Shown here piece after piece: positions 1,052-20,506 of a DNA stretch of 32,000 nt; within the stretch, counting starts at the first letter, position 1, and each line of letters starts with the position of its first letter. Made by a program: the position numbers and the translations under genes. A model generated the notes under the pieces. It was not told the DNA's origin and ran no database searches. It worked only from the letters and a program-made list of their open reading frames with translations. Source of the stretch: Promethearchaeota archaeon (lineage in GTDB: Archaea > Asgardarchaeota > Lokiarchaeia > Sigyniarchaeales > Promethearchaeaceae); assembly GCA_016933055.1 (NCBI GenBank), contig JAFGBS010000009.1, positions 330,001 to 362,000 of the forward strand, written 5' to 3'.

Positions 1052-1134
1052 AGGTACCTCCTTATATAACGAAATTAATAGTTTGTTATTAGTCCCAATA
1101 ATGGTTAACAATCTTTTCAATTTCAATTTATAAT

Positions 1135-2085: not shown

Positions 2086-2093
2086 TGTAACTC

Positions 2094-5033
2094 CTATCTG
2101 AATTGATATCGCTCCAAGATCTCCATTTGCATGGTTTTGTTCAGTGATATGAAATAGGCATTGTATCCACTAACACGAATCATAAGCCATCGGTAATTTT
2201 CGGGATGCACCATTGCATCACGTAACATCTCTGAAGTAACTACATTAAATTGAATCTGTAACCCTGATAAATCAAAGTAGGATTTACTATAATCCGTAAA
2301 ATGCTGAACCGCAGTTTTATGCGGATCATTTGGTCCGGGTACTAATTTGACATTAAATGCGAGATTATTTGGAGTTTTCAAGTGGTCAATAGCAGCGACA
2401 GTTTTGATATTTTGGATGAGTTGGTCGGAGGAACCAGCTGAGGGTGTAATGCCTGGAGTAAAAGCTTTCCCACGCAAGCGTCCAGATGGGAGAGCACCCG
2501 ACAGTTTACCAAAAGCACTATGATTTGACATAGACCAAAATCCAACCATATATCTCCCCCCTCTGTAATTTTCGTGCTGGTAGTATTCATTATAAAGAAA
2601 ATCAACAAGATCATGAGCTAAACTCATTAGATCGGGATTATCTCCGGATCCAAATTTGGGTAGATTTGAAATGCGTTGAAGAATCACCTTATCTTCATTA
2701 TGAGAGAAATTTCTATCTAATATTTTTTTCAATGAGTATAAATCCAAAATTTTATCTTCATACACTAATTTTTTAATTGAATATAAGGAATCAATCACAT
2801 CGGTTAATGCCACTAACGCTACACCTGTGGAGTTATAGTGTGCACCCCCATCAACGACATCAGTTGCGGTTTCCACACAGTCCTCAATCATAGTAGAGAG
2901 AAAAGGTGTGGGATGATACTTTTGATGCATTATCCCACAATTATTGTTATATTCGACAGTGTGAGCGATCATATTCCCCATCTGCTTTTTATATCCATGT
3001 ACGACACTTTTAAATGTAGGGAAATGTTCGTTTGTAAATTCTCCCGTTGTTAATCCGACTTGAGGATGAATTAAAGGATGGTATCCATTTCCAAACAGCA
3101 TTTCTAATGGAGCAACAAGGTTTACCATAAGACATCCTGTGTGTCCGAAGTGTTTCCCGACACTAGTTGGTTCAACACACCCAGTAGCTGCCCAATTGTT
3201 TGCATCTTGTTCCGAAAATCCATGTACTTTCTGAACGGTTTCAATCATCAATTTGTCATTATGAATGCTTGGCGTAGACGTGGTATTGATGTTTACTTCA
3301 CATAACCGAGCGAGGTATTCATGAGAATTGAAATCTGGATGATATTTTGCATTTACGTTGGGATCCCGAATTGATAACATTTCGGTAACCTTCAAAAATA
3401 TGTAAGTGAGATCATTTACTGCATTTTTACCATTCACTGTAATCCCTCCAAGAGTGAGTGCTTGATCAGAGGAAGATCCTCCAAAAAGTTTATTTCCCAC
3501 ATTTGGAACCATTGGTAAATGATCTTGCGCTTTAAGATAAAAAGCTCCAATTAATTCAATAACTTTTCGAATGTATTGGTCTTGTTCAGATTCAGAGGAT
3601 AAGGTTTCCATATCTTTGAGAAAATAGGGATATAAAACTTGATCCAAGCGACCTAATGATAATCCTGCGTTCATATTTTCTTGATGTAGACATAGCCATG
3701 TAATCCAGATTGCAGTAATTGCTTCCCGAAAATTGCCTGCGGCTTTATTAGGAACTTGCTTAAGAACAGTATAAATTTCTGGCAAATTATTAGCATTCGA
3801 ATCATTTACATTTTTTATTTTTTTTAATTGCGATTCAACCTCTAATTTTAAATTTTCACCATATATTTGCATTCCTGCAAGGCATGCTTTCATCCCGGTA
3901 TAATACTGTTTTTTCTTTTCATTTTCAGTAATCAAAATTCTTTCATTAAATTCCTCAATTAAATTATTTAATCCATTATCTAAAATGACTGAAAAATTAG
4001 GTATGGTATGGCTTATGGCTTGGGTTTTCCATTCGAAGAAAAGGCTGAAGAATTCTTCCATCCGTTGAGATTTCGGATTATTAAAATGTGAACGAGCCAA
4101 CTCTCGTATGTTTCTATCCATCCAATAAGGATATACATATTTATTGAGGAGTTCAGCATCTTCTTCACTGATATGATAAGGATTTAACTCTCGACTCTGC
4201 ATGGTTGCGAGTTCTGGCCACATTCCTACTCCACCAAACTCTGGAAACAGTAAAACTCCAAGTTTTTTACTGGTAGTGCTTCCAGGAAGTAGGTCTCCTT
4301 CAAAGATTCTTGGAGTTTTATGGGATAAAAGGTATTTTAGCATCAAACCTTGACGCTCGCCAGCTTCCCATTCTGTTCCGTCTAATTTTCTCTCGAATCC
4401 ATTTTGCTTGAAAAATTGCGTTATAAGTTTTGCCCGTTCGGTGCAGAAATGGGCATGTGTAGAGAACCACTCATTTTTCATCCTCTCCAGAATTGGGAAA
4501 TCACGGAGCTTATATCTACCGAGGTAGGGATCTTTTAGAAACTGAACACCATCAACTTTTCTATCCAGTATCAGGTTTTCTTTCATTTTTATTTTCTCTT
4601 CTTCTTCTGTGATCTTTGTCGGAGGAGGGAAATTTTTGGATAGTTTCTTTTTTGGTTTGGTTGGAAAAATAGTAGAGAGGTAACTGAATTTACTAAGATG
4701 TGAGAGACTTCCAATATAGTATAACTCTCCCGAAAGTAACATATCTAATGATTGATCTGCAGAAATCGTTGCGGCGTACGCCATAGTTTTCTTATCTTTA
4801 TAAACTAAAGTTGTATCTGGATTTGGATGATGTTTAAGCAATTTCATGCGTCCATTATGAAATTTGATATAGATATTTGCATCTTCTAATCGAGTTGTTA
4901 TTCTCATTATAACATTGAACGCATAATCTTCTTCTGGGATGTAAATTTCCTCCCGAAACTTTGAAAATAATCGGAATTTTAAAGCCATTAACCGCAATCC
5001 CAATTTGAAGATAAAAATAGATGCCATAAGCAT
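2094..5033 (-). CDS. Glycyl radical enzyme (PFL2/dehydratase-eliminase class) with N-terminal SCP2-like domain
   Basis: Gly loop RVSGY (2163-2177), single-Cys loop GCVEP (3168-3182), SLGRLDQVLYPY, ALTLGG; ~120-aa N-terminal extension with an SCP2-like pattern. True start may be a later Met (e.g. MALKF, 4988). Confidence 0.9.
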   Translation of the reverse strand: MLMASIFIFKLGLRLMALKFRLFSKFREEIYIPEEDYAFNVIMRITTRLEDANIYIKFHNGRMKLLKHHPNPDTTLVYKDKKTMAYAATISADQSLDMLLSGELYYIGSLSHLSKFSYLSTIFPTKPKKKLSKNFPPPTKITEEEEKIKMKENLILDRKVDGVQFLKDPYLGRYKLRDFPILERMKNEWFSTHAHFCTERAKLITQFFKQNGFERKLDGTEWEAGERQGLMLKYLLSHKTPRIFEGDLLPGSTTSKKLGVLLFPEFGGVGMWPELATMQSRELNPYHISEEDAELLNKYVYPYWMDRNIRELARSHFNNPKSQRMEEFFSLFFEWKTQAISHTIPNFSVILDNGLNNLIEEFNERILITENEKKKQYYTGMKACLAGMQIYGENLKLEVESQLKKIKNVNDSNANNLPEIYTVLKQVPNKAAGNFREAITAIWITWLCLHQENMNAGLSLGRLDQVLYPYFLKDMETLSSESEQDQYIRKVIELIGAFYLKAQDHLPMVPNVGNKLFGGSSSDQALTLGGITVNGKNAVNDLTYIFLKVTEMLSIRDPNVNAKYHPDFNSHEYLARLCEVNINTTSTPSIHNDKLMIETVQKVHGFSEQDANNWAATGCVEPTSVGKHFGHTGCLMVNLVAPLEMLFGNGYHPLIHPQVGLTTGEFTNEHFPTFKSVVHGYKKQMGNMIAHTVEYNNNCGIMHQKYHPTPFLSTMIEDCVETATDVVDGGAHYNSTGVALVALTDVIDSLYSIKKLVYEDKILDLYSLKKILDRNFSHNEDKVILQRISNLPKFGSGDNPDLMSLAHDLVDFLYNEYYQHENYRGGRYMVGFWSMSNHSAFGKLSGALPSGRLRGKAFTPGITPSAGSSDQLIQNIKTVAAIDHLKTPNNLAFNVKLVPGPNDPHKTAVQHFTDYSKSYFDLSGLQIQFNVVTSEMLRDAMVHPENYRWLMIRVSGYNAYFISLNKTMQMEILERYQFR

Positions 5034-5075
5034 AGGATTGATTTATTTTCTAATTAAAACTTATGCTTAAGAATA

Positions 5076-5711
5076 CTATTGTTGGTCTTCCAATGATGCA
5101 TATATCTCTTTCCATGAATGACATACAAACTCAGAATGACCAGAAAATGTAGTCTCCCCTTTAATTGTGTCAAATCCTAATACAGCATACTCATATGGTT
5201 TAAACAGGTCACCGTCCTTCGGATGAGTAATAATCCCTACCCCAGAGGGAAATTTCGAAACGATTTTCCGTATTACGTCTCGCTTATAACTATACAATGA
5301 TTCATGGGTTTGCTTGAAGTATAGGTGTATCTTATCCATGGGAAATTGGAGATTGGACAATTGTTCGAGTGTTTTTTCCTGTAATTGTTTGATTCGCTCA
5401 CTAATGATATGTGTTTCAAAGTGTTTGGACAATTTGGTTAATCCTTCAACAGCACCCTTAAATGCTATTTCGAGATCCAGCATATTGTATTGGTTGTAAA
5501 TCTCATAAAATCGATTTCTACGACTACTTGCAGAAAAGCTAATCGTATTTGTCATAAAACTGGCGATTTTCTCATGATTTTCCTTATTACTCAAGTAATT
5601 CTTGATGGATTGATCATCCCATCCAATTTCCTTATATGTCTGAAATTTTCTTGGAGTGGGATCTAATATAATGTATTCTAAAGATGGAATAACTAGGGCA
5701 AAATGTGCCAT
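5076..5711 (-). CDS. Hypothetical protein, degenerate HAD-fold (5'-nucleotidase-like)
   Basis: GAVEGLTKLSKHFETHIISER...KTLEQL and C-terminal EFVCHSWKEI resemble NT5C-type HAD segments, but there is no DxD motif I. Confidence 0.5.
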   Translation of the reverse strand: MAHFALVIPSLEYIILDPTPRKFQTYKEIGWDDQSIKNYLSNKENHEKIASFMTNTISFSASSRRNRFYEIYNQYNMLDLEIAFKGAVEGLTKLSKHFETHIISERIKQLQEKTLEQLSNLQFPMDKIHLYFKQTHESLYSYKRDVIRKIVSKFPSGVGIITHPKDGDLFKPYEYAVLGFDTIKGETTFSGHSEFVCHSWKEIYASLEDQQ

Positions 5712-5725
5712 ATTGTATATAATGC

Positions 5726-6478
5726 CTATTTTTCCTTAATGGGTACGTCAACAACGTCTTGGGATTGTTTGATTGTAAAAAAGAATCTTTGTTGATAACG
5801 CTCCAAAATCCGAATCGTTTGTTCACCAAAAACGATTAGAAAAATGAAATTAGACAAGGCATGAGCAATATCAAATGGAATACTCTGGATATTCGTAGCT
5901 ATGAATGATGCGAGGGATATAGGCCTGATTAACAACCATGACCATATATTCATAAACCATCCATAAAGAAATGCGAGGAGAAAACCCATTAATGCTAATA
6001 TCCATTTATCGGGTTGTTTATTTCTTGTCTTCCCTAACGCACCTCCTAGTAATCCGAAAAATCCCCAAGCAAATATTTGATAGATTGTCCAGACACCTTG
6101 TCCGAGAAATATATTAGATAAAAACGCAGTATTCCCTCCAATTATGAATCCGATTAATGGACCAAATACATAACCTGCGCAAAGAACTAAGAAAGAAACG
6201 GGTTGGACACTGGGAATTCCAACAAAAGGGATCCTAGCTACTGCAGCGAAGGCACTATATATAGCAATTAGGGCAATTTCTTTCGAAGAAATATCCGATT
6301 CTTCAAATTTAAAATATATTGCAAGGATGAATAACAATAAGTAAATCATCCCAATGAGAATTAATGCTAAACTGGGAATTTCATTAACATTGATTTGCTG
6401 ATTAAAAATAATTGGGATCAGGAATGTTAAAATGCCAATTGTGAGTATAAATATGAATAGAAAATTACTGCGTTTCGT
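5726..6478 (-). CDS. ECF transporter substrate-binding (S) component, CbrT (cobalamin)-like
   Basis: KEIALIAIYSAFAAVARIPF, VQPVSFLV, SNIFLGQGVWTIYQIFAWG, DIAHALSN. ORF track starts at ATG 6349, but the frame is open upstream with two more hydrophobic helices up to an SD-preceded ACG at 6478. Confidence 0.8.
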   Translation of the reverse strand, partial: TKRSNFLFIFILTIGILTFLIPIIFNQQINVNEIPSLALILIGMIYLLLFILAIYFKFEESDISSKEIALIAIYSAFAAVARIPFVGIPSVQPVSFLVLCAGYVFGPLIGFIIGGNTAFLSNIFLGQGVWTIYQIFAWGFFGLLGGALGKTRNKQPDKWILALMGFLLAFLYGWFMNIWSWLLIRPISLASFIATNIQSIPFDIAHALSNFIFLIVFGEQTIRILERYQQRFFFTIKQSQDVVDVPIKEK

Positions 6479-8150
6479 TTCTAAAAACCTCCAATAAATT
6501 TTCTGCAGTCAATACGAAATCTGGAATTTCTTTAAAATTCTTTACTAAACGATTGATTTGTGGGATGAATGGTTCATAGTTCGGTAGAATCTTATGTGGT
6601 AGACCATCATCCACTATCCCACCTTCAGATAAAATAATAACTCTATGAGCATATTTGGCTACTGTTTCTATGTCATGGGTCACCAAGATTACGGAATTTC
6701 CATTGGAGCAATAATTATTTAAAAACCTCATGAAATCGGTTTTTTGTCCAATATCCAATCCATGAGTAGGTTCATCTAACACAAGAAGTGTTGGTTTTAA
6801 AAGCAATACCGTGGCTAATGCTGCTCGTTGTTGCTCCCCAATTGATAAAAATCTACCATATCTAGATGAGTAACGCGTCAAATCAAAAGTTTTTAGGCAG
6901 TTTCGGATCGCAGATTCTCGCGTTCTTTCATCTTTATATCCATAATTTCGCAGAACAAAATCAAATTCGTCGTGAAGATTATCTTGATAAAATTGAATCG
7001 ATGGATTTTGGAAGATATACCCGACTTTTCTCGCCATTTCTGCCACTGATTTTGAATTGGCATTTTCTCCATTAAGAAGAATTTTCCCTTTGACTGGTCT
7101 TAGCAATCCATTCATATGCTTAAGTAAAGTGGTCTTTCCACTACCATTTCTCCCCATTATTGCAATAAATTCACCTGGATATATATTCAGAGAAACCTCT
7201 CGTAAAATCCAATCCGAAGATGTTGAATACTTAAACCAAATATCAGATAACTCTAATAGGGGATTTGAATCTGGATTTGGAGGAGTGTATGGATTAAATT
7301 TAAAATCCTTACGGGGTGTATGGATTTTTAAAATTTCTGTCATGGCACTTATGGCATCATGTAATGTTAATGGTGTAAATGTTTGCCTTATTTGTGAAGG
7401 AAAATTTTGAAAAAAATGAACAATGGGGGGTGAAAATGACCGAGCTTCTGGAAATTTATATATCACTTCGGTGGGGGAAGAATCCGCTATTATTTTTCCC
7501 TTTTTCATTAAAACTATACGATCAATATAATCGATTACCCGTTCTAAACGATGTTCTGTAATAATAATGGTTTTCTGATGTTTTTGATTTAAACTGACTA
7601 ATAATTCCATTAATTCCTTCGCTGCGTAGGGATCTAATTCTGATGTTGGTTCATCCATCAATAAAATTTCAGGACCCATTACTAAAATAGAAGCAAGAGC
7701 AACTTTTTGTTTTTCACCCCCCGATAATGTAGTAATTTTTCTGGATAAAAGATTAGTAAATCCCAGATCTTCTGCAACTTCCTGAATTCGTGAGTCCATT
7801 TTGTCTTTTGGGAATCCAAGATTTTCCATACCAAATGCAATTTCTGAATCAACACTACTCATAAATAACTGATTTTCTGGATTCTGAAACACCGTTCCCA
7901 CATGTTGGGATAATTTACGAGGGCTAAGTTCAAACGGATTTTCCCCTAAAACTTGAATGTTACCAGTCAAAAGACCGCCATAAAAATGAGGTATTAATCC
8001 ATTTACAGCTCTCATTAAGGTGGTTTTTCCACATCCGGATTCTCCTGTAATTAAAATGAAATCCCCTTTACTTACCTGCAATGATATCCCCTCTAAAGCA
8101 GGGGAAGGTGTTTTATTGTACGTAAAGCTCAAATTCTCGATCCGTATCAC
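6465..8150 (-). CDS. ecfA: ECF transporter fused A-A' ATPase
   Basis: Two NBDs: GESGCGKTT / LSGGEKQKV / LLMDEPT and GRNGSGKTT / LSIGEQQR / LVLDEPT; VFQNPENQLF Q-loop; GTG start overlaps the ecfT stop (GTGA) with GGAGG upstream. Confidence 0.93.
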   Translation of the reverse strand: MIRIENLSFTYNKTPSPALEGISLQVSKGDFILITGESGCGKTTLMRAVNGLIPHFYGGLLTGNIQVLGENPFELSPRKLSQHVGTVFQNPENQLFMSSVDSEIAFGMENLGFPKDKMDSRIQEVAEDLGFTNLLSRKITTLSGGEKQKVALASILVMGPEILLMDEPTSELDPYAAKELMELLVSLNQKHQKTIIITEHRLERVIDYIDRIVLMKKGKIIADSSPTEVIYKFPEARSFSPPIVHFFQNFPSQIRQTFTPLTLHDAISAMTEILKIHTPRKDFKFNPYTPPNPDSNPLLELSDIWFKYSTSSDWILREVSLNIYPGEFIAIMGRNGSGKTTLLKHMNGLLRPVKGKILLNGENANSKSVAEMARKVGYIFQNPSIQFYQDNLHDEFDFVLRNYGYKDERTRESAIRNCLKTFDLTRYSSRYGRFLSIGEQQRAALATVLLLKPTLLVLDEPTHGLDIGQKTDFMRFLNNYCSNGNSVILVTHDIETVAKYAHRVIILSEGGIVDDGLPHKILPNYEPFIPQINRLVKNFKEIPDFVLTAENLLEVFRNETQ

Positions 8151-9055
8151 CTTTGATTTCCTCCCATCTGTAATAAGAGAATCTGACTTATTCCCACAAT
8201 AAGAATACCCATTACGAACATAATATCATAAAACTGAATGGTTGGAATTGTTAGCTCAGGTAATATTTGAAAGATTCCGAACCCCGCGATTTTCAAACCC
8301 ACTAATGCTGCAAGCAATCCAAAAATTATAAAGACATTTAGATAATCTGTAAATCTAAATCGTATGCGAGAATAAAAAGTTCGTTTCTTTTCTCTATTAA
8401 AAGCACGTGTTTCTAATGCTTCCGATACCTGAATTGAACGCTCTAAGGAATTTGTGAGTAAAGGAAGTAATAAGACCATTTTTCTTCTGATTTTTTGAAA
8501 AAATCTGCCTTTTTCTAATTCAAATCCACGTGCTTTTTGCACATCACTGATGATCTCCAAATCCCCTTTTAAAAGGGGAAAAAATCGAAGGGAAAGTGTG
8601 ATTAAAAGCACTATTATATATGGTAACCTTAATTTTATTAAAGTTTGCATTAATTGATCGGTATCTATAAGGAGATTAAACAAAATAAAACTATAAATAA
8701 CTATCAAAAGTTGAAAAGATGTTATGAAACTTAAGATCAATGCGTTCCATGTTATAATAAATGATCCCAATACAGGTACCTTCTCATAATAAACGATAAT
8801 ATTATTACCTTGCCGATTTAATAGAGTATACAAAATTATCAGAATAAAAACCATGATAAAATAATATCTGAGAGATCTCATCGATTCTTTAAACTTTTTT
8901 GCAATGATAGACAAGATAATGAGGTTAAGGAATAAAATTATGAGATATAAAGGATGATTGAACAGAAAGGAGAAAATAAAATAACTGATTAAAATAAAAA
9001 ACTTAACCAATGCATTCGTCCGGGCGATTTTATTAGGGGATGATGAGTAGGTCAA
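8147..9055 (-). CDS. ecfT: ECF transporter transmembrane T component
   Basis: Hydrophobic N-terminal half, LSLRFFP, coupling-helix motifs QKARG and LETRA; adjacent to ECF ATPase and S component. Confidence 0.9.
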   Translation of the reverse strand: MTYSSSPNKIARTNALVKFFILISYFIFSFLFNHPLYLIILFLNLIILSIIAKKFKESMRSLRYYFIMVFILIILYTLLNRQGNNIIVYYEKVPVLGSFIITWNALILSFITSFQLLIVIYSFILFNLLIDTDQLMQTLIKLRLPYIIVLLITLSLRFFPLLKGDLEIISDVQKARGFELEKGRFFQKIRRKMVLLLPLLTNSLERSIQVSEALETRAFNREKKRTFYSRIRFRFTDYLNVFIIFGLLAALVGLKIAGFGIFQILPELTIPTIQFYDIMFVMGILIVGISQILLLQMGGNQR

Positions 9056-9103
9056 CTTTCCTACCTAATATCTTAGGTACCATCTTAATTAAATCAAACT
9101 CCT

Positions 9104-9826
9104 TCAGAACTCACTCAGTGGGACTTTTCCATCATAAAACACAGTCTTTCCATCAAAATGAATTTGTGCACAAATAATAGGGATTGTTTTCTTCCTAGCG
9201 AAAGACAATGCCGTTCCAAACTTAGGATCCATCTCAAAATTAGGTGAAAATTTAGCTGCTTTATGGAAAATAAGGAATAAAAGCATCCCATTATGCTGGA
9301 TGATTTCATACACATGTCTAGCACCTCGCTCTGTGGGTGCATCAGGAAAATAGGCTATATTATTTTCCTTAATCAAACTTACCCCCTTTACTTCCAAGGG
9401 GATTCCATCCATCATAAAATCTATACGACTTTTCCCTATCGGAACTTCGCTTCTAATTTCTTTTACGTATCGAAATTCTTCTATCAAAGGAAATATAGCT
9501 CGAGAAATACGGTTATGAAGTGCACTGTCAATTAATACCCACTCTTCCGTCTTTGATTGAACTGCTTTCACATACCATGGTAATTTTTTCGTTCCCGGAA
9601 CCATCAGTAGATTTGCATTTTCTTGTAATAGTTCATTCAATCGACCGGGATCATGGATATGTGCTTGAGTTAAATTTCCATTATACTTAATGTTTGCAAC
9701 GAATCGATTAGGTCGATCAATAAATTGTGCGTTATAGAGGTTTGAAATCCTAAAGAGGGGTATCATTACATGTGAGAATTCATATAACTTTTTGAATGTC
9801 GTCTTTTTTTCATTATAAGCTGACAA
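9104..9826 (-). CDS. sfsA: SfsA family DNA/RNA nuclease (sugar fermentation stimulation protein)
   Basis: RPNRFVA, AHIHDPGRLNELL, SRIDF, EVKGVSL, FPDAPTERGARHV. Probable start is the Met at 9766. Confidence 0.9.
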   Translation of the reverse strand: MSAYNEKKTTFKKLYEFSHVMIPLFRISNLYNAQFIDRPNRFVANIKYNGNLTQAHIHDPGRLNELLQENANLLMVPGTKKLPWYVKAVQSKTEEWVLIDSALHNRISRAIFPLIEEFRYVKEIRSEVPIGKSRIDFMMDGIPLEVKGVSLIKENNIAYFPDAPTERGARHVYEIIQHNGMLLFLIFHKAAKFSPNFEMDPKFGTALSFARKKTIPIICAQIHFDGKTVFYDGKVPLSEF

Positions 9827-9830
9827 TAGA

Positions 9831-9838
9831 TTATATTT
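9831..9838 (+). promoter_or_regulatory. Putative archaeal TATA box for a leaderless URO-D-like gene
   Basis: TTATATTT 22-29 nt upstream of ATG 9860 in a divergent intergenic region. Confidence 0.35.
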
Positions 9839-9859
9839 TACCCTGATAATACTATTTTA

Positions 9860-11071: not shown

Positions 11072-11250
11072 TGAAATTGAAATTTGGGATTTTTCATTGC
11101 GATTATTTGAAAATAATAGTAACATGCATAAATGGATTTTTTGGATATCATTCATAGCCAAGAAGATAATCTAAAGATTAAAAACAAAGAACATCGCTTT
11201 TTACGAACAAGAAAGAAAATTGATTAGAAATTGAAAGAAGAATAAATAAA

Positions 11251-12498: not shown

Positions 12499-12510
12499 AA
12501 TGCAACTCTC

Positions 12511-13971
12511 CTATTCTCGTTCCGGTTCATCATATAATTTTCCAGGATTCATTATGTTGTTAGGATCTATGACATGTTTGATTTTCTTCATTAAATCTAA
12601 TACTGGACCATGTTCGTCTCGCATCCAACGTGCTCTATTTATACCAATACCATGATGATGGGATATCGATCCTCCTGAATTCAGTGTAGCTATCATAGCT
12701 GCATCCCATGCACTATTGTAGAATTCCTCTGGGCTTTTTCCTTCAGGAACAATTCCACTAAATGTAAAGTAAAAACACACACCATTGGGATAAAAATGAG
12801 AAGCATGACCCGATGCAAGTAATAAACCATCGAGTTTTTTCAATTCATTGATAACGGAGTGATATAAATGAACCGCATCGTCCCACATGCATGAAATCTC
12901 AATTGTGTCTGCAATTTGCCCCTTTGGCATATAAACGGAGGTTTCTTTGACATTAAATCGGGTTTCAAACCAATGATCCACTGGATTTTTTCCACAATCT
13001 GTTCCATTGCATTCCAAGCATGTTTTTCGAATCTCTGAGATTTCAAGCTCAACCAAAGATGAAATGGGTGCCTCGCAGACAAAAATTACCATCAGCCTAT
13101 TTTTTGCTTGTGGTTCATTATAGAAATGCCGTTCAGTTTCCTGTTTATCGTAAATGCGAACAACAGCAGGATAAATTTGCTTTTGTAAAATTAACTGAGT
13201 AGCCTTTAAACTGTCTTCTATAGCATCAAACGCAAAGGATACACCTTGTTGCTTTTCAGGTAGTGGCCACATTATCATAGTTGCTTGAGTGACTATACCT
13301 AGTGTGCCCTCGGAACTTAAAAATAAACGTTCAATTTGCGGTCCGTTGGATGCACGAGGGTATAATTTTGTATCTATAATTTCTCCATTAGGGAGAACCA
13401 CTCGCATACTTAAAACAATATCTTCAATTTTACCGTATTTAGTCGAGAATTGACCTGCTGCTCGATGAGCAATCCAACCTCCTACAGTAGAAGTATGGAA
13501 ACTTTGCGGTACATGACCGATAAGAAATCCCTTCTGTTCTAATTGTCTTTCTAGCCATTTACCATTAGCACCAGTTTGTACGGTAACTGTTAAGTTTTGT
13601 TTGTTAACTTCAATTATGTCAGTCATTCTTTTCATATCGAGCATGATCCCCCCGTATACGGGGATGGCTGCGCCTACAACACCTGATCCCTCTCCATAAG
13701 GAACCACAGGTATTTTTTTTCGATTTGCACATATTAATATCCGGGATATTTCTTCCTCATTTTCTGGCCAGACAATAACATGGGGTAATCCGGGGACCTT
13801 ATTTTCCATGATCCAGCGATTTGTAATTAATTGATAGTCTTTTGAATACGCAACAAGATCAGCTTCTTCAGTAGAAACCCAATCGGGTCCGACAATTTCT
13901 GATAATTCAGTAACTAAAGCGTTCAAATCATCAATTTTAACCCGTTTTTTATACACAACATCAAACTTCAT
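12511..13971 (-). CDS. FAD-binding oxidoreductase (VAO/PCMH family), alkyl-dihydroxyacetonephosphate synthase-like
   Basis: PYGEGSGV, GHVPQSFHTSTVGGWIAHRAAGQFSTKYGKIED, SSEGTLGIVT, PAVVRIYD, CFYFTF, SHHHGIG (HHH at 12652-12660), IDPNNIMNPGKL. Confidence 0.88.
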   Translation of the reverse strand: MKFDVVYKKRVKIDDLNALVTELSEIVGPDWVSTEEADLVAYSKDYQLITNRWIMENKVPGLPHVIVWPENEEEISRILICANRKKIPVVPYGEGSGVVGAAIPVYGGIMLDMKRMTDIIEVNKQNLTVTVQTGANGKWLERQLEQKGFLIGHVPQSFHTSTVGGWIAHRAAGQFSTKYGKIEDIVLSMRVVLPNGEIIDTKLYPRASNGPQIERLFLSSEGTLGIVTQATMIMWPLPEKQQGVSFAFDAIEDSLKATQLILQKQIYPAVVRIYDKQETERHFYNEPQAKNRLMVIFVCEAPISSLVELEISEIRKTCLECNGTDCGKNPVDHWFETRFNVKETSVYMPKGQIADTIEISCMWDDAVHLYHSVINELKKLDGLLLASGHASHFYPNGVCFYFTFSGIVPEGKSPEEFYNSAWDAAMIATLNSGGSISHHHGIGINRARWMRDEHGPVLDLMKKIKHVIDPNNIMNPGKLYDEPERE

Positions 13972-14103
13972 AGTTGTACCACATTATAAATAGATAATCT
14001 CACTTGAAAAAGCCAGACGATAAACTTAAACCTATTGGTATCATAATCATCAGAAAAAAGAATTCACAAAGAATAAAATAGCTCTTAAAACAAATATTGA
14101 GTT

Positions 14104-14463
14104 ATGACTTATCTTGAAGATATTCCCGCATTAATTTATACGATGTTATACACTCATAATAAGGACGGTAGACTCCGTAAAGCTACGGAACACAAAAAAC
14201 TCAGTATTTTATTTGATTTTCCGGACTTTCCTCCCGCAGCTTTATTAAAGATACAAAATGGTAATTATGAAGTCTTAAGTGTAGAAAATCCCGAGGGTAT
14301 CTCGGCGGATGCAATCATAAAAGGGAATTTTGAAGATATTGTCGAGTTATCTGGAGGCTTTGGAAGGGGGATCAGTCTTCTCTTAACGGGAAAAGTGAAA
14401 ATAAAAGGGCTTCTAAAAGCGATAACGTTGCTTAAAATCTTGGGGGAAAAGGAGGTGTTGTGA
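14104..14463 (+). CDS. Stand-alone SCP2 (sterol carrier protein 2) lipid-binding domain protein
   Basis: LLKIQNGNYEV...ADAIIKGNFEDIVEL...LLLTGKVKIKG...LLKIL is the SCP2 pattern. Confidence 0.8.
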   Translation: MTYLEDIPALIYTMLYTHNKDGRLRKATEHKKLSILFDFPDFPPAALLKIQNGNYEVLSVENPEGISADAIIKGNFEDIVELSGGFGRGISLLLTGKVKIKGLLKAITLLKILGEKEVL

Positions 14464-15585
14464 TTGAGGGAAATTATGACAAGTTATGAACGTTCTATTG
14501 CTGCAATTGAACATAAATCCGTTGATCGGTTTCCTATTATATCCCTAGGTGTCGATTATGCTTTTTACAATGAATTTATGGAGGAAATTGGTTTCACACC
14601 AGAAGAAGTAAAGCAATATGCAACTGATGGGATATTAACTGGACCTCCTTGGTCACATGGTGTGAATGTAAAATTAGGTGTGGATATCGATTGGACTTCT
14701 ATGAGAGCCAGACAACATTATGATCATGAGACCCATCAAATTCTAGATACATTTGGAGGAATTGATAAAGTTGTGGTGAATGATAGTGGTATTCCCCATT
14801 TGTGGTATGTTAAACCATTCCTTACGTCCAAGGAAAAAATTAAAGACTGGTGGAATTTGGGGAGACCGAAACCTTACACGAACGCTATGATCAAACCTTT
14901 AGTAAAAATTATGCAGACGCTTATAGATAAATACCAAATGTTAAGTATGATTGGCTTACCAGGTCCATGGGAAAACTTGCATATGTCAATTGGAATGGCA
15001 CAAGTTGCGAAATTTTGTCGAAAAGATCAACGATTTCTCGAGGAGATTTTGGAAAAAAATTTTGAAGTTCAAGGAGATGGTTTGGAGCGTATAATGAAAT
15101 TAGGAAATCCTCCCGTTGTCATGTGTGGCGATGACTATGGATTCAATCAAGGTCTCCAAATGCCTATTAAATATTGGAGACAATTTATCAAGCCCATCTT
15201 AAAAAGGTATGTAGAAATCGTACATAGTTATGGATCTAAATTTCTATTACACTCTTGTGGTAGCATAGGAGATATTTTTTCCGACTTAATAGAAATCGGA
15301 GTGGAGGGTGTGGAATCTCTGCAACCAACGATAAATGATCTTGTGACGCTCAAACACAAATACGGGGATAAAATCGCATTATTAGGAACGATAGATGATA
15401 CTAATCTCTTGGTGAGGGGGACAACCGAGCATGTTTGGAGTGAAGTAACGAATTCAGTTAAGTTATTGGGAAAGGAAAGTGGGTATTTGCCGGGTGCAAC
15501 AAATACGCTCCTTAATGCGAAAGTTAGTAATGTGAAGACTATGATTGAAGCAATTCAAAGTATGAATCCTCAATATGTAATTTAA
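14464..15585 (+). CDS. Uroporphyrinogen decarboxylase / MtaA-CmuA superfamily protein
   Basis: MTSYERSIAAIEHKSVDRFP, DTFGG, CGDDYGFNQGLQM, LLHSCG, IGVEGVESLQP, LLGTID. TTG start 6 nt after GGAGGTG (14451-14457). Confidence 0.87.
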   Translation: MREIMTSYERSIAAIEHKSVDRFPIISLGVDYAFYNEFMEEIGFTPEEVKQYATDGILTGPPWSHGVNVKLGVDIDWTSMRARQHYDHETHQILDTFGGIDKVVVNDSGIPHLWYVKPFLTSKEKIKDWWNLGRPKPYTNAMIKPLVKIMQTLIDKYQMLSMIGLPGPWENLHMSIGMAQVAKFCRKDQRFLEEILEKNFEVQGDGLERIMKLGNPPVVMCGDDYGFNQGLQMPIKYWRQFIKPILKRYVEIVHSYGSKFLLHSCGSIGDIFSDLIEIGVEGVESLQPTINDLVTLKHKYGDKIALLGTIDDTNLLVRGTTEHVWSEVTNSVKLLGKESGYLPGATNTLLNAKVSNVKTMIEAIQSMNPQYVI

Positions 15586-16247
15586 TAACGGTATCTCCAT
15601 TCTTGTCGGCATTTCTTACAATAATATTTTTTCGCGAATGACCCCCTACCGGGATCGGGCATTTCTTGACACTCCATTTTCCCACATTTCGGGCATTGAA
15701 TTATTCCATTTTCGGGGTAATCAATTTCTACAACTTGTCTTTGCAAGCTTCTAGGATCGGCTGCATTAAAACTTGCAAGATTGGGGGTAGGTTCCTCCTC
15801 AAATTCAGGTGGTTTTTGGACTAATTCTTTGTATAGTTGAGCTTCGGATGAGACTGATTGAGGATCTACTTCAGATGGTGAGAATAAACTGGAGGGTTTA
15901 ATTAAACCAATATCTTGTTTTTTAGATGTTGAAATAGAAGGGGTGATATTTCTTCCTTGGGATTTTGTAAACGGTTCCAATTTTGCCATGGATAATTCAT
16001 CAAGTTTCTCTACAATGATATTTAATTTTGCAGTTATTGCAGTAAACATAGATTGATAATCGGGTATGGGTGCGCATTCTTCTGGAATTTGTTTTAGTAT
16101 CTCTTCCATTTCAAATAATTCATTTTTAAGTTTTGTATTCTCCTCTTGTAATGAGAGGATTTGTTGTTTCAATAGCTCTTTTAAATCATTTAGCTTGGCG
16201 ATCTGTTCATCTTTCGCTTTAATTAAATTTTCCATACCTTTGTCCAA
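15582..16247 (-). CDS. Hypothetical protein: N-terminal coiled coil, low-complexity linker, C-terminal Zn ribbon
   Basis: Heptad-rich LIKAKDEQIAKLNDLKELLKQQILSLQEENTKLKNEL; C-terminal CPKC...CKKC...W. Confidence 0.75.
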   Translation of the reverse strand: MDKGMENLIKAKDEQIAKLNDLKELLKQQILSLQEENTKLKNELFEMEEILKQIPEECAPIPDYQSMFTAITAKLNIIVEKLDELSMAKLEPFTKSQGRNITPSISTSKKQDIGLIKPSSLFSPSEVDPQSVSSEAQLYKELVQKPPEFEEEPTPNLASFNAADPRSLQRQVVEIDYPENGIIQCPKCGKMECQEMPDPGRGSFAKKYYCKKCRQEWRYRY

Positions 16248-16404
16248 TCCAATTTCACAAGATCATGAATATTATTGATAAAACATAAGTCCGATAGTGC
16301 TAAATAAATTTGTTTAAATTATACCATAATCACTAAAACCATCACAAACTAGATTATCCGCTATATTTCTCTTAATTTGTTCAATTTTAATGTAATAGAA
16401 AGAC

Positions 16405-16420
16405 AAAAATTAAAAAAAAA
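16405..16420 (-). terminator. Putative oligo-T archaeal terminator
   Basis: T9 and T5 runs on the minus strand immediately after the stop at 16423. Confidence 0.45.
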
Positions 16421-16422
16421 TC

Positions 16423-18204
16423 TCAGTTATTATTGGTAAACACTTTTCTCTCTTTTAACATCGCCTTGAATATTTTTTCATAATAAATTTGATTTTTAAC
16501 TTGAGGTTTATTGATATCCAATGTGACATTGTATAGATAAGCATTTTTTTGGTCATATACTATTGAAGCTCTTACAATATTTCCATCTAACTCAAATTCT
16601 GCATCAATTGCTCTCCGTGTCAATTCTTCCGTCTCCTCCGTTTCTGCACTTATCATTTCTATTGAATCTAACCATTCATTGAAATTATCCATATTCAATT
16701 TTTCGTCAAAATTTAAAAATACCGATAGTGTATCATCTAATCGTTTTGTCATCCATTGGAGGGTCCTCAAAATCAGAAAAACGAGTCCAACCCATAAAAT
16801 AAGATTTATGCCAAACCATAAAATGACACCCCAAGGACCAGATGGAAGAGATAATCCAAATAACCTTGGAAAAGTTTCTTCAGTAGAAAAACTATATTCC
16901 CCCACAATTAATGCTAGGATCTCAAAAGCTAATGAGCCTGACATAATCACTTCCAATATCTGCATTTTATTTTCTTGACGTTCCGCTGATTTGAACATAC
17001 GACGTTGAATCTGAGCAGTATCTTTTATACCCCGAAAAATCTGTTGAAGGCGTTTTTCTTGGATTACAGATATTTGATTTTGAAGGTTAGTTACTTCATT
17101 TTCTAACCCTTTTATGAGATCAGCAATATCATCAGCGCGTTCCCAATTTGATTGTAAAGTCTCTCTAATTTCCAAAATATCAGAAAATTGAGATAGATCT
17201 TCATTGAAATGTTTCTTGTGTACATTATATTCATCAAATGCATCCTTGATAGAATTTTTTATAAAAGAACTCAATTCAGACATTAACACACATTCTGCTG
17301 TAACAGCTGCCAATGTCTCTTGTGCTTTTCCAACTGCACGCGGGTCTGTGTGGAAGTTATTCGTCATCTCTTTTACTTCCTTAATCTCATCACTCACACT
17401 AAAAAAGAGATTGAAATAATTAGAAATAAACACGCTAACTGAGCGTGCAAAAGCAAATTGCACTAAAATCGGTTCATAATACGATAAATCTTTACTTATT
17501 AATATAGCTCCTGCGGTTCCGATGAAAACCTTATCTCCGTTTTTTAAATCCTTTGCTTTTTCAATATAATCCAAAATTTGACGCAGTTCTGATTCCTTTT
17601 CTCTCTTATCTAAGTATTCCTCAGCGGTTAAATTCGGTTCCATCGACTCTCCTAAAATCATGAAATATTTTTGGCGATAAAGTGCTCTTCCATAATAATT
17701 AAGATTCAGTAGTTCACGTTGATGTTCAGATAATAAATCATGTAATAGTTTTGATGAATCAAATGCAATATCGGTACTTAAGCGAGGAATATAATCTAAA
17801 TACAGTATATCACTCCTTCCTTGTGCTTCTATTACATCTATCCCACAAATTACTCTACCATATTGGCTGATCGATATTCCTATTTGTTCTTTTTGGATAA
17901 TACCTTGCTCTTCCGGATACATTATTTCTGTCACAAAATTAGAATACTCTGAAAGGGAGAATGACAATAATTCAACTTGTGTTTCTATAGATGAAGTTTC
18001 AACAACAGTAGAATTTGGGAGTTTATCGCGATCGGCAGTAATATACGTTTTTTTAATGTCATTAAAAGCATTTAGTTTTGTATTAAATGCAAACATTTCA
18101 TTACGATGAAATGGAATATATTCTGAAACTAACAGCTTCAAGTTTCTTATTCCGAGAATTTCGGTAAGGCTATTATCTCGTATATTGTGTATTTTCTGAT
18201 TCAT
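16423..18204 (-). CDS. Hypothetical membrane protein with CorA-like architecture (alpha/beta domain, long helices/coiled coil, two TM helices, C-terminal soluble domain)
   Basis: Coiled coil DLIKGLENEVTNLQNQISVIQEKRLQQ, then TM segments ILEVIMSGSLAFEILALIVG and GVILWFGINLILWVGLVFLIL; no GMN motif. Start set at ATG 18204 (MNQKI), 10 nt after GGAGGT; the ORF track gives 18222. Confidence 0.7.
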   Translation of the reverse strand: MNQKIHNIRDNSLTEILGIRNLKLLVSEYIPFHRNEMFAFNTKLNAFNDIKKTYITADRDKLPNSTVVETSSIETQVELLSFSLSEYSNFVTEIMYPEEQGIIQKEQIGISISQYGRVICGIDVIEAQGRSDILYLDYIPRLSTDIAFDSSKLLHDLLSEHQRELLNLNYYGRALYRQKYFMILGESMEPNLTAEEYLDKREKESELRQILDYIEKAKDLKNGDKVFIGTAGAILISKDLSYYEPILVQFAFARSVSVFISNYFNLFFSVSDEIKEVKEMTNNFHTDPRAVGKAQETLAAVTAECVLMSELSSFIKNSIKDAFDEYNVHKKHFNEDLSQFSDILEIRETLQSNWERADDIADLIKGLENEVTNLQNQISVIQEKRLQQIFRGIKDTAQIQRRMFKSAERQENKMQILEVIMSGSLAFEILALIVGEYSFSTEETFPRLFGLSLPSGPWGVILWFGINLILWVGLVFLILRTLQWMTKRLDDTLSVFLNFDEKLNMDNFNEWLDSIEMISAETEETEELTRRAIDAEFELDGNIVRASIVYDQKNAYLYNVTLDINKPQVKNQIYYEKIFKAMLKERKVFTNNN

Positions 18205-18206
18205 AC

Positions 18207-18893
18207 CTATTGTAACCTCCATTCTTCTGGTTCTTTATCATCATTCCTCTCTTTAGCACGTAGGAATATTTTGATGGTTTTTTTATCATCGATTTGAAGA
18301 TATCCGTATTTTTCATCTCGCCTTGCATAGTTAATATAAAAAGGAAATTTTGGAAAATAAGGTTTAGAGGAATAAGATATATCTTCGATCGTTGTAATAT
18401 CAGAATCAGTCCGTGAATTGCATGATTTGCACATCAGATAAATATTATCTTGGGGGTTTTTCTCGTATCGAACACTCAACAACTCATTGCATTGATTACA
18501 CCGAATAATTTTATCCATCTTTCTCATGTATTCTTCGGGAATTCCAATTTTAAAGCCCTTTTTAGTCACTCGGTAGGCAGAAATCATTTTGGAGCTTTGA
18601 GAAATCAATTTTAAACATTCCACAAGATCTAATTGTCTGAGATCAACAATATCGTCTTCGGCTTCTTGGCTAATATTAAAAAACATTCGCCCATTGACCG
18701 TATCGACACTCAATGGTGCATAATCATAACCCGTAAATACTTGATCGATAATTCCTTGAAAAATAAAAGTTCGCAATGCCAATTCCTTTAACCAGACATC
18801 TGGATCCTCTAAATTTCTCCCTATATTCGAAAATTGGGAAATCAAGTAAAGTAGTTTTTTCTGGTCATCAGTTAATTCTAATGGAGACATCAT
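18207..18893 (-). CDS. Hypothetical protein, winged-helix-like domain plus Zn ribbon
   Basis: LTDDQKKLLYLIS..., YDYAP, NISQEAEDDIVDL, wing motif AYRVTKKG, then CNQC/CKSC. Confidence 0.72.
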   Translation of the reverse strand: MMSPLELTDDQKKLLYLISQFSNIGRNLEDPDVWLKELALRTFIFQGIIDQVFTGYDYAPLSVDTVNGRMFFNISQEAEDDIVDLRQLDLVECLKLISQSSKMISAYRVTKKGFKIGIPEEYMRKMDKIIRCNQCNELLSVRYEKNPQDNIYLMCKSCNSRTDSDITTIEDISYSSKPYFPKFPFYINYARRDEKYGYLQIDDKKTIKIFLRAKERNDDKEPEEWRLQ

Positions 18894-18934
18894 TTACTTG
18901 AACCTATTTGTCATAATTGTATTGATGATGGTGT

Positions 18935-18955
18935 AAAAAAAGATTTGTAAAAAAA
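18935..18955 (-). terminator. Putative oligo-T terminator after the kinase gene
   Basis: Two T7 tracts (18949-18955, 18935-18941) on the minus strand just downstream of the stop at 18968. Confidence 0.4.
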
Positions 18956-18967
18956 TAAATCTTGAAT

Positions 18968-20506
18968 CTATTTCACAATACGTACGGCATTAACTGCCTT
19001 ATTCCATCGTATTAATTTCTCCTTTCGTTTTTCGGGATCCATTTTTGGGATAAACTCGGTATAATCTAATTTCAAGGATTTTAATTCCGTTAGATCTTTC
19101 CAAAAACCTACACCGAGACCGGCAAAAAAAGCAGCACCAGTTGCTGTCATATCCGCTTCTGGTGCTCTTTTCACTACAAAGTTTGCAAAATCTGCCATTG
19201 CTTGAAGTTCGATATCAGATTTACTTACTCCGCCATCTACTTTGATGCTTTTTATTTTTGTATTTGTGTCTTGTTCAATTCCCTTGATGATATCATACAC
19301 GCGCAAGGCTAGCCCTTCCAAAACAGCCCTGGCTACATGACGTCTATGTGTAGTAAGGGAAAGTCCAAAAATTGCTGCCCGACAGGAAAAATCGAAAATA
19401 GGGAACTGAATGCCTGTGGGAGCAGGTACGAATACCACACCTTCTGTATCTTCCGTTTCTGAGGCGAATTCATTTAATACTTTTGGTGTATCTGACAATC
19501 CAATTCCCTCTCCTAACCAATCAATCAATGTTCCTGCTGTTGCCACTTGTCCTTCTAGCAAATAGGTGGCTTTTCCGTCAATAAACCATGCAATGAGAGG
19601 ATATAATCCCCGTTTGGAAATTTTTGGATTCTCACCTACTGTGACATCCACAAAAATACCCGATCCTTGAGATACTTTAACATCACCTGGTTCAAAACAT
19701 TGTTGACCGAACAATGCACACTGTTGATCACCACCTGCAGCATGAATGGGGATCTCTATACCAAATAATGACTTATGGGTCATTCCAAACAAGGAATTGG
19801 TTTCTAATACTTGGGGAAATCCCTCAATGGGCAAATTAAACATATTACAATATATCTTATTCCATTCCATATCGAATGGATTAAAAAGTCCCGTGCTTGC
19901 GGCATTAGTGTAATCGGTAACATGTGACTTTTTCCCAGTTAGGTTATAAATAAACCATGTGTCCAATGTTCCAAAAATTATTTCCCTCTTTTTTAACCGA
20001 TCTCGTAAATCTGGTTGGTTGTCGAGTAACCATTTTAGTCTCACTGTCGCCTGCGCTGGATCAAATTTGAACATAGAGGTGGTTTTCATCATAACACTAC
20101 TACTGATTGCCCCGATAATTTTAGTAATTCCTTTGAGAAACCGCCATTTACCCTTTTCATTCATTTTCTCTGCTGTTTCAACAGAGCGAATATCTGCCCA
20201 GCTTATAAAATTAGTTACTGGTTTTCCTGTTTCTTTCTCCCATAAACAAAAAGAACCTCGTTGATTGCTGATCCCAATCGCAGCAATATCTTCAGCTAAA
20301 AATCCTTTATTCAGAACACTTTTTACCACACTCAATAAAGCATTCCATAATTCTTGGGGGTTATCCTCAATTGCGCCCTCTTCAGGATGTAGAGGATTTG
20401 TTTTTTGATATTCTCGGGCTACGATATTCGCATGTTTATCAAATAAAATTGCTCGTATACCAGTAGAACCCGAATCGATACTAAGTATATATTTTTTTTC
20501 ACTCAT
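18968..20506 (-). CDS. glpK: FGGY-family glycerol kinase, GK5-like subtype
   Basis: SIDSGSTGIRA, GISNQRG, FGTLDTWFIYNLTG, TDYTNAASTGLF, GGDQQCALFG, KVDGGVS, TATGAAFFAGLGVGFW. Has a helical insertion and NQRG/DPAQ substitutions relative to canonical GlpK. Confidence 0.85.
   Translation of the reverse strand: MSEKKYILSIDSGSTGIRAILFDKHANIVAREYQKTNPLHPEEGAIEDNPQELWNALLSVVKSVLNKGFLAEDIAAIGISNQRGSFCLWEKETGKPVTNFISWADIRSVETAEKMNEKGKWRFLKGITKIIGAISSSVMMKTTSMFKFDPAQATVRLKWLLDNQPDLRDRLKKREIIFGTLDTWFIYNLTGKKSHVTDYTNAASTGLFNPFDMEWNKIYCNMFNLPIEGFPQVLETNSLFGMTHKSLFGIEIPIHAAGGDQQCALFGQQCFEPGDVKVSQGSGIFVDVTVGENPKISKRGLYPLIAWFIDGKATYLLEGQVATAGTLIDWLGEGIGLSDTPKVLNEFASETEDTEGVVFVPAPTGIQFPIFDFSCRAAIFGLSLTTHRRHVARAVLEGLALRVYDIIKGIEQDTNTKIKSIKVDGGVSKSDIELQAMADFANFVVKRAPEADMTATGAAFFAGLGVGFWKDLTELKSLKLDYTEFIPKMDPEKRKEKLIRWNKAVNAVRIVK

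Follow-up and report, generated by a model that had tools for sequence, protein, structure and literature searches.

An 18 kb stretch in the genome of an Asgard archaeon (Promethearchaeota; 3.76 Mb in 36 contigs), running from the gene of an SCP2-fused glycyl radical enzyme (GRE) to that of an FGGY kinase, is probably a genus-specific juxtaposition of three independently conserved modules and not the locus of one pathway. It lies in a window of 32,000 nucleotides (G000:C17:330001-362000; positions below count from its first letter), whose genes were inventoried from six-frame open reading frames (ORFs) together with Pfam and NCBIfam scans. Module A comprises the GRE and its activase; module B an AGPS-like flavoprotein, a CCG-type Fe-S subunit and the FGGY kinase; and module C a small SCP2 protein and a 373-aa URO-D/MtaA-like protein. 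The initial annotation of this DNA had named these genes, all of which the ORF calls and family scans find where it had placed them (Table 1), and had joined them into a single pathway for glycerol-ether or monoglyceride metabolism. When neighbourhoods and co-occurrence are compared over Asgard genomes, linkage is kept within module B, but outside one genus there is none between it and modules A and C. Separating true association from local coincidence in this way keeps the region from being annotated as an "ether-lipid locus".

Kinase, flavoprotein and Fe-S subunit form a conserved module

The comparison covered 40 Asgard flavoprotein neighbourhoods from about 35 genera. A CCG gene follows the flavoprotein gene in 39-40 of the 40 loci, and 33 have an FGGY kinase at a distance of up to 10 kb, which is either an orthologue of the kinase in the window or of a second FGGY type. 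These are the links of the originally proposed pathway that hold; the GRE and the SCP2/URO-D genes, as described below, are unlinked to them outside the genus. A GlpA-type glycerol-3-phosphate (G3P) dehydrogenase adjoins the module in 21-22 of the 40, as GlpA-GlpB-GlpC or as GlpA/NOX/DUF1667, and the GlpB of these loci clears its NCBIfam equivalog cut-off. The initial annotation had remarked that no GlpD or GlpA gene is present in the window; GlpA, which is not adjacent here, directly adjoins the module in those other genomes. In the present genome a GlpA/NOX/DUF1667 set lies on contig C10, and there are three GlcD-like/CCG pairs of the ordinary kind in other places.

Gene order within the module differs from family to family (FAD denotes the flavoprotein gene). 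Family f9 has FGGY-GlpA-GlpB-GlpC-FAD-CCG in 13/13 loci; family f2, sister to that of the window, has FAD-CCG-FGGY, usually followed by an alpha/beta hydrolase gene whose product matches no lipase model; and the genus of the window has FGGY-(p221)-FAD-CCG, p221 being a 221-aa coiled-coil/zinc-ribbon protein. Moreover, two unrelated FGGY subfamilies, one GlpK-like and one XylB/LsrK-like that reaches no cut-off, share a single slot in different genera. Since the order has changed and one FGGY kinase has been replaced by a non-orthologous one, the linkage points to selection and not to mere inheritance.

The association is not confined to Asgard archaea. In a scan of bacteria and archaea with one genome per prokaryote species, it was also found in Paraburkholderia, Bradyrhizobium, Acidimicrobiia, Chloroflexia and Bacteroidota. 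There, 26 of 40 loci with a His-motif flavoprotein gene have an FGGY or GlpA/GlpD neighbour, against 0 of 24 loci with a gene of the GlcD/D-lactate dehydrogenase type (GEH/AEH motif). The initial annotation had pointed to such linkage in bacteria, and linkage to glpD/glpK-type genes is indeed seen there. A subclade with an EHH motif lies beside a true xylulokinase, which makes it probable that several small polyol phosphates are covered by the wider family. Taken globally, flavoprotein, Fe-S subunit and kinase are a real and old module tied to glycerol-phosphate and dihydroxyacetone phosphate (DHAP) metabolism. The flavoprotein gene is single-copy and occurs in 168 of 301 genomes of the phylum; a homologue was also seen in the cultured Lokiarchaeum ossiferum. 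The module, which over half of the sampled Asgard genomes and many bacteria have, is uncharacterised, and alkyl-DHAP synthase is the name that it is routinely, and wrongly, given. What it acts on matters for the way in which the closest archaeal relatives of eukaryotes handle glycerol-phosphate backbones, and so for the lipid divide.

Some further features of these loci were recorded. The two FGGY types stand in tandem on one contig (L090:1454-7015) and alternate after FAD-CCG in sister genera (L032-L039). Several f2 genera (L034-L038, L086, L088, L090, L091) have, ahead of the flavoprotein gene, a gene for a conserved soluble helical protein of about 492 aa that belongs to no Pfam family; the genome of the window lacks it. 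Homologues of the 211-aa protein of the window lie 1-3 kb downstream of FAD-CCG in two sister-genus genomes (L030, L031).

An AGPS-like pocket with a probable electron-transfer partner

The flavoprotein has a VAO-type FAD domain and cap (PF01565, E 1.2e-42; PF02913, E 3e-33). Its best solved relative is AGPS (2uuu, 213 bits; D-lactate dehydrogenase gives 145 bits), with which it shares the FAD_binding_4 plus FAD-oxidase_C fold of the AGPS/ADPS enzymes (EC 2.5.1.26; 2uuu, 4bby; myxobacterial MXAN_1676) and the motifs SHHHG, V-R-I/V-Y-D and C-x-Y-F. In the window protein these are SHHHG at 437-441, VVRIYD at 270-275 and CFYF at 399-402, each aligned with the same motif in both 2uuu and 4bby. Residues H438, H440, R272 and Y401 are invariant among 11 Asgard orthologues; the middle His varies across the clade, being Gln throughout family f9 (HQH). 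In AGPS, the HHH loop and the active-site Arg and Tyr have catalytic roles. The CCG protein, whose gene starts 12 nt after the flavoprotein gene, matches PF02754 in two stretches (E 1.6e-28) as well as PF13183, a 2x[4Fe-4S] ferredoxin domain, which places it with the GlpC/GlcF/HdrD type; its N-terminus is basic and amphipathic. The earlier description of the pair as an AGPS-like flavoprotein with a CCG Fe-S subunit is borne out by these matches.

The pair also differs from AGPS in several respects. AGPS exchanges acyl for alkyl on DHAP in a redox-neutral reaction that needs no electron-transfer partner, whereas the Asgard flavoprotein is always encoded with a dicluster/CCG Fe-S subunit. The window protein is also about 75-140 residues shorter at its N-terminus and lacks the N-terminal helical domain of AGPS: some 50 residues precede the FAD domain, and in the alignments residue 53 stands opposite residue 128 in 2uuu, and residue 55 opposite residue 198 in 4bby. 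In Asgard genomes it is accompanied by genes for FGGY kinases and G3P dehydrogenases instead of FAR or GNPAT. Neither of the latter genes is in the window, and a search of the whole genome returned, as NAD_binding_4 matches, generic SDR proteins of about 330 aa, together with three unlinked PlsC-type acyltransferases. The AGPS-like pocket suggests a DHAP-type ligand; net electron transfer, a chemistry foreign to AGPS, is suggested by the Fe-S partner.

A VAO-type flavoprotein that hands electrons to a dicluster/CCG protein is also found in the glycolate oxidase GlcDEF, the D-lactate dehydrogenase Dld-II/LdhAB and YdiJ. Unlike these, the window protein has an H-H-H active-site motif in place of E-H, and its genomic context is another one. 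It carries SHHHG and not the E-H-G of GlcD/D-lactate dehydrogenase, and scores 219 bits against a cut-off of 568 in the GlcD model TIGR00387. A possible recoding of TGA in the flavoprotein orthologues of one genus was considered and rejected: in the one locus in which the alignment recovers it, the in-frame TGA lies upstream of the start codon and is a read-through artefact. A literature search returned no paper on the Asgard AGPS-like/CCG pair or on the function of Rv2251.

A kinase with an altered glycerol pocket

FGGY kinases phosphorylate glycerol-type polyols. The window kinase, the sole GlpK-like gene of its genome, scores 366 bits against solved glycerol kinases and lies under both NCBIfam GlpK cut-offs (NF000756, 455.8 against 498; TIGR01311, 455.5 against 590). 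Compared with GlpK of S. aureus, it has NQRG for NQRE, DPA for DPY and an insert of 14-16 aa, and keeps the Arg and the Asp. The glycerol ligands of GlpK are Arg83, Glu84, Tyr135 and Asp245 (E. coli numbering). All flavoprotein-linked kinases retain the equivalents of Arg83 and of the catalytic Asp and lack Glu84, and the GlpK-like ones also lack Tyr135. Because these two ligands are missing, the substrate is probably not plain glycerol.

The surroundings of module B recall the GlpK-GlpABC genes of anaerobic glycerol catabolism and the GlpA/NOX/DUF1667 sets of the Thermococcus type: most Asgard families have the same neighbourhood, with a GlpC-type CCG protein and an FGGY kinase. However, the flavoprotein belongs to the VAO family and not, as in GlpABC, to the DAO family; no GlpA gene adjoins it in the window; and the linked kinases, unlike GlpK itself, fall below the GlpK cut-offs and are without Glu84.

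Mechanistically, the kinase would phosphorylate a glycerol-like polyol, probably other than plain glycerol; the flavoprotein would bind the resulting glycerol-phosphate or DHAP-type ester in its AGPS-like pocket and carry out a net two-electron step at the flavin; and the electrons would leave through the dicluster/CCG subunit to an acceptor. Module B is thus best read as a two-subunit flavin/Fe-S dehydrogenase acting on a phosphorylated glycerol-like compound, beside the oxidation of G3P to DHAP.

The SCP2-fused glycyl radical enzyme stands apart outside the genus

The GRE has the catalytic domains of its class (PF02901, E 9.5e-148; PF01228, E 8e-22), with a PFL-like barrel from residue 183, a glycyl radical motif (RVSGY, with Gly956), a cysteine loop (GCVEP, with Cys619 and Glu621) and an activase gene 8 nt downstream. 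It reaches no NCBIfam equivalog cut-off. SCP2 carries lipids, and an SCP2 domain at the N-terminus of the enzyme had been claimed in the initial annotation. Sequence searches are silent on this point: Pfam gives no SCP2 match at E values up to 10, and neither BLASTP nor profile-profile comparison finds similarity to the small SCP2 of module C. Twenty orthologous N-termini were collected, an AlphaFold model was built from the alignment of 21 orthologues, and this model was searched against the PDB with Foldseek. Residues 1-122 are confidently modelled (pLDDT 81-94), and their 45 best matches are all SCP2 domains (top E 2e-6, target TM-score 0.56-0.65), among them UbiJ-SCP2 (E 2e-6), the SCP2 domains of alkylsulfatases and sterol carrier proteins. 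At the level of the predicted fold, the claim is correct.

The closest solved enzymes are the B12-independent glycerol and 1,2-propanediol dehydratases and PFL2 of A. fulgidus (333 and 315 bits). The GRE shares with these eliminases the glycyl radical loop, the Cys-x-Glu motif, the equivalent of His164 and a dedicated adjacent activase, and differs in about 180 additional N-terminal residues that bear the SCP2 fold. In an alignment to 1r8w, His281/Ser282 and Asp447 of the glycerol dehydratase of C. butyricum are replaced by Ala-Gly and Gly.

Orthologues that are full-length, N-terminal extension included, are present in about 33 of the 301 genomes, in three families at 44-49% identity and within the same genus at 80%. 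We compared 20 GRE neighbourhoods with every protein of the window; 19 of them are outside this genus and come from f1, f2 and f21 (44-59% identity). The activase adjoins the GRE in 19 of the 20 and is the sole neighbour retained outside the genus; none of the 19 outside neighbourhoods contains the flavoprotein, the CCG protein, the kinase, the SCP2 protein or an orthologue of either URO-D-like protein. Other neighbours also surround an orthologue of 59% identity, on a contig of 10 kb, and the ECF and SfsA genes are kept beside the GRE in same-genus relatives only. Outside the genus, 27 genomes hold both the SCP2-GRE and the flavoprotein and never have them on one contig, and four GRE-bearing genomes have no flavoprotein match at E 1e-70. 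The role in a shared pathway that had been proposed for the GRE finds no support in these distributions.

The commonest third gene is instead an aldehyde:ferredoxin oxidoreductase (AOR) following the activase (10 of 20 loci, all in family f2), a position in other genera that fits an aldehyde-forming eliminase. The activase would install the radical on Gly956, and Cys619 and Glu621 would drive an elimination or dehydration that turns a hydrophobic substrate, held by the SCP2 domain, into an aldehyde. Module A is thus probably an SCP2-guided GRE, an eliminase that yields an aldehyde, and with its recurrent AOR neighbour it is a separate candidate for the anaerobic attack on a hydrophobic substrate. 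No paper on SCP2-GRE fusions was found in a literature search.

Elsewhere in the genome, an AOR of 766 aa on contig C15 (L168:3916-7596), beside an iron alcohol dehydrogenase, has a C-terminal tail with a sub-threshold SCP2 match (20 bits). As the missing partner of the GRE it was rejected, having 31% identity to the GRE-linked AOR against 53% for a gene on contig C16. A CDF gene lies near the SCP2-GRE in this genus (125-1126) and, as a longer paralogue, in genus g8 (L019:4014-5438 and related loci).

The SCP2/URO-D cassette has a distribution of its own

Orthologues of the 373-aa URO-D-like protein are found in 12 of the 301 genomes. A small SCP2 gene lies immediately upstream in 10/10 loci examined, so the two genes form a real cassette. 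Other neighbours of the cassette elsewhere encode a GDSL lipase, a HAD hydrolase, an enoyl-CoA hydratase, an acyl-CoA dehydrogenase and a CoA ligase-type protein. The nine loci outside this genus have no flavoprotein, GRE or orthologous kinase nearby, and in a genome of the same genus (G234) the cassette is on another contig; membership of the cassette in the proposed pathway is therefore not upheld. A lack of conserved linkage in related genomes is what the initial annotation had itself named as grounds for refutation, and this is what the comparison shows for the GRE and for the cassette.

The 373-aa protein resembles the MtaA/CmuA methylcobamide:thiol methyltransferases in matching the TIM-barrel URO-D fold and in its zinc motif H-x-C, its HSCG aligning with that of MtaA (4ay7); both URO-D-like proteins of the window have H-x-C. 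It falls well below the MtaA/CmuA cut-off (TIGR01463, 58.5 against 235 bits), and its partner is SCP2 where MtaA and CmuA have a corrinoid protein; no corrinoid protein is among the neighbours in those cassette loci, 4 out of 10, in which they were annotated. To judge from these sequence features, module C would combine an SCP2 carrier with a zinc-type MtaA-like transferase, in a lipid-flavoured context. The second URO-D-like gene of the window, of 403 aa, adjoins the CCG gene in this genus only and has no orthologue in 40 other flavoprotein loci.

A further URO-D/SCP2 association is found on contig C24 (C24:8446-15377; L167:4447-11378), where a URO-D-like gene is followed, after 82 nt, by the gene of a 793-aa Old-Yellow-Enzyme/Pyr_redox_2 reductase with a C-terminal SCP2 domain, and then by sterol-enzyme-like genes, for a DUF1295 membrane protein and an EXPERA(EBP)-SDR fusion. 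The association thus recurs in this genome.

Arrangement within the genus

The arrangement FAD-CCG-UROD-ECF-GRE-activase recurs in three very close relatives only (79-85% identity). Between kinase and flavoprotein, even these differ. One relative (L165) has FGGY-p221-UROD-SCP2-FAD, with the cassette placed as in the window; another (L008) has FGGY-p221-FAD, with the cassette on another contig; and the pair of 599-aa and 228-aa proteins is missing from both. With three gene orders among close relatives, two recent insertions have evidently set the kinase of the window 5 kb apart from the flavoprotein gene. In the window, the small SCP2 gene is divergent from the flavoprotein gene across a 132-nt spacer.

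Weighing the readings

Several observations weigh against the reading as three separate modules. All three same-genus relatives available retain the whole order of genes from GRE to FAD-CCG, and the SCP2/URO-D genes lie divergently beside the flavoprotein gene in two of the three; this retention means that local co-regulation may exist in this lineage. Several pieces are lipid-flavoured as well, namely two SCP2 folds, the f2 alpha/beta hydrolase and the lipase and acyl-CoA genes near module C. The genomes compared are mostly fragmented metagenome-assembled genomes, in which a position on "different contigs" sets no more than a minimum for the distance between two genes (typically above 8 kb, going by the flanks that were sequenced), and related genomes are non-independent samples.

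Were all four units one dispersed alkyl- or acyl-glycerol pathway, in which the kinase made the 3-phosphate, the flavoprotein/Fe-S pair oxidised or exchanged it, the GRE cleaved by radical chemistry and the SCP2 proteins carried the lipid, one would understand why every part lies within 18 kb and stays there in three same-genus relatives, why there are two SCP2 folds, why the kinase pocket has lost the ligands of the distal glycerol hydroxyls and why the GRE bears the C-x-E motif of eliminases. We nevertheless regard such a pathway as very unlikely: its GRE and SCP2/URO-D parts are unlinked to the flavoprotein and kinase beyond one genus, the distributions are far apart (168, about 33 and 12 of 301 genomes for flavoprotein, SCP2-GRE and cassette), and the cassette lies on another contig in G234. 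The two SCP2 folds are themselves weak evidence for a shared pathway, because fusions of SCP2 to redox enzymes are common in this genome (the OYE-type reductase-SCP2; the AOR with an SCP2-like tail). Module B alone might still act on lipids with glycerol ether or ester bonds, the kinase phosphorylating alkyl- or acyl-glycerols for the AGPS-like enzyme, which would oxidise alkyl-G3P or free the alcohol from alkyl-DHAP by flavin N5 chemistry, with no part for the GRE. The conserved AGPS signature residues, the loss of Glu84 in every linked kinase and of Tyr135 in the GlpK-like ones, the hydrolase after the kinase in family f2 and the basic amphipathic N-terminus of the CCG protein are all in keeping with this; the missing AGPS N-terminal domain (the Dictyostelium enzyme is aligned only from its residue 128 onwards), an obligate Fe-S partner that points to net redox chemistry foreign to AGPS, the usual GlpABC neighbours, which are enzymes of soluble substrates, the EHH subclade beside a true xylulokinase, which suggests small polyol substrates, and the failure of the f2 hydrolase to fit any lipase model leave it unlikely. 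An ether- or acyl-glycerol substrate is possible, given the altered kinase pocket and the f2 hydrolase, and is required by no result here. An extended version, to which we give little credence, would make module B an anaerobic salvage route for glycerol ethers or lyso-lipids, with an alkylglycerol kinase and an N5 flavoprotein/Fe-S pair supplemented in this genus by the SCP2-guided GRE. If it were true, the long-sought alkylglycerol kinase would be the GlpK-like kinase with its enlarged pocket; alkyl-glycerol-phosphate would be oxidised, or the alcohol freed from alkyl-DHAP, by the flavoprotein, whose AGPS-type N5 chemistry would be coupled to the Fe-S partner; and the GRE would act on the hydrophobic product.

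Two more conventional enzymes were weighed for the flavoprotein. An ordinary dehydrogenase of D-lactate, glycolate or another 2-hydroxyacid, brought near glycerol genes by the methylglyoxal bypass, would agree with the GlcD model being the best NCBIfam match and with an FAD-oxidase, dicluster and CCG architecture like that of GlcDF, Dld-II and YdiJ. It is quite improbable, with the score so far under the GlcD cut-off, H-H-H in place of the E-H-G motif of that clade, three other GlcD-like/CCG pairs in the genome for the role, and GEH/AEH-type genes lacking FGGY or GlpA neighbours in all 24 loci. Least probable is a true alkyl-DHAP synthase making ether lipids of bacterial or eukaryotic type in Asgard archaea. 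AGPS is indeed the best solved relative and shares the catalytic motifs, homologues are labelled alkyldihydroxyacetonephosphate synthase by JGI, and PlsC-type acyltransferases exist elsewhere in the genome. Yet the protein is without the N-terminal domain and never without an Fe-S partner, linked FAR or GNPAT genes are absent, and the middle His is Gln across family f9. A phylogenomic preprint, moreover, reports that the plasmalogen pathway is not present in Archaea (10.1101/2025.10.10.681575). The reading of the stretch as three modules, with a dehydrogenase of a phosphorylated glycerol-like compound at its centre, is the one that we prefer.

Gene content of the window

Table 1. Features of the window between positions 125 and 20506, with the module to which each belongs.
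Feature	Positions	Strand	Module	Remarks
Cation-efflux (CDF) protein	125-1126	-		End of co-directional minus-strand string
GRE activase (radical SAM)	1135-2085	-	A	TIGR02494, 239 bits against cut-off 174; 8 nt after GRE
SCP2-fused GRE, 979 aa	2094-5033	-	A	PFL-like and Gly_radical domains; SCP2 fold
GRE, SCP2 domain (residues 1-122)	4668-5033		A	
GRE, catalytic part (residues 183-979)	2097-4487		A	
211-aa protein, no family	5076-5711	-	outside modules (flank)	Sub-threshold Pfam matches alone; faint HAD/acid-phosphatase likeness
ECF transporter (S, fused A/A', T components)	5726-9055	-		Pfam; unrelated intervening gene(s)
SfsA	9104-9826	-		Pfam; unrelated intervening gene
URO-D/MtaA-like protein, 403 aa	9860-11071	+	outside modules	HCCG motif; Pfam URO-D, 51 bits
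CCG/dicluster Fe-S subunit (GlpC/GlcF/HdrD/TfrB type), 415 aa	11251-12498	-	B	Two CCG domains and Fer4_8
AGPS-like VAO-family flavoprotein, 486 aa	12511-13971	-	B	His438-440, Arg272, Tyr401
Small SCP2, 119 aa	14104-14463	+	C	Pfam, E 1.4e-5
URO-D/MtaA-like protein, 373 aa	14464-15585	+	C	Directly abuts small SCP2 gene; HSCG motif
221-aa coiled-coil/zinc-ribbon protein (p221), then 228-aa and 599-aa pair	15582-18893	-		Without family assignment
GlpK-like FGGY kinase	18968-20506	-	B	NQRG at 81-84, DPA at 149-151, Asp of GDQQ retained

The minus-strand genes for SfsA, the ECF transporter, the 211-aa protein, the GRE, the activase and the cation-efflux protein form a co-directional string with gaps of 8-115 nt. 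The start codons of SfsA and of the 403-aa URO-D-like gene are divergent and 33 nt apart (9826-9860), which is scant room for two archaeal promoters, so that the true start of one gene, or of each, may be internal to the frame given here. A search for RNA data sets containing 11251-15585 listed none, and in two metatranscriptome runs from the source study a single partial match of 40 nt was obtained to positions 1135-20506. Two hot-spring metagenome runs (2017) contain contigs 99-100% identical to parts of 1135-20506; they belong to other studies than that of the likely sediment source sample. Beyond the kinase, between 21805 and 31602, the window encodes an Eco57I/MmeI-like DNA methyltransferase, an ABC exporter, endonuclease V, a DUF362 protein with a long C-terminal region, a 509-aa protein without family and a B12-binding radical SAM enzyme.

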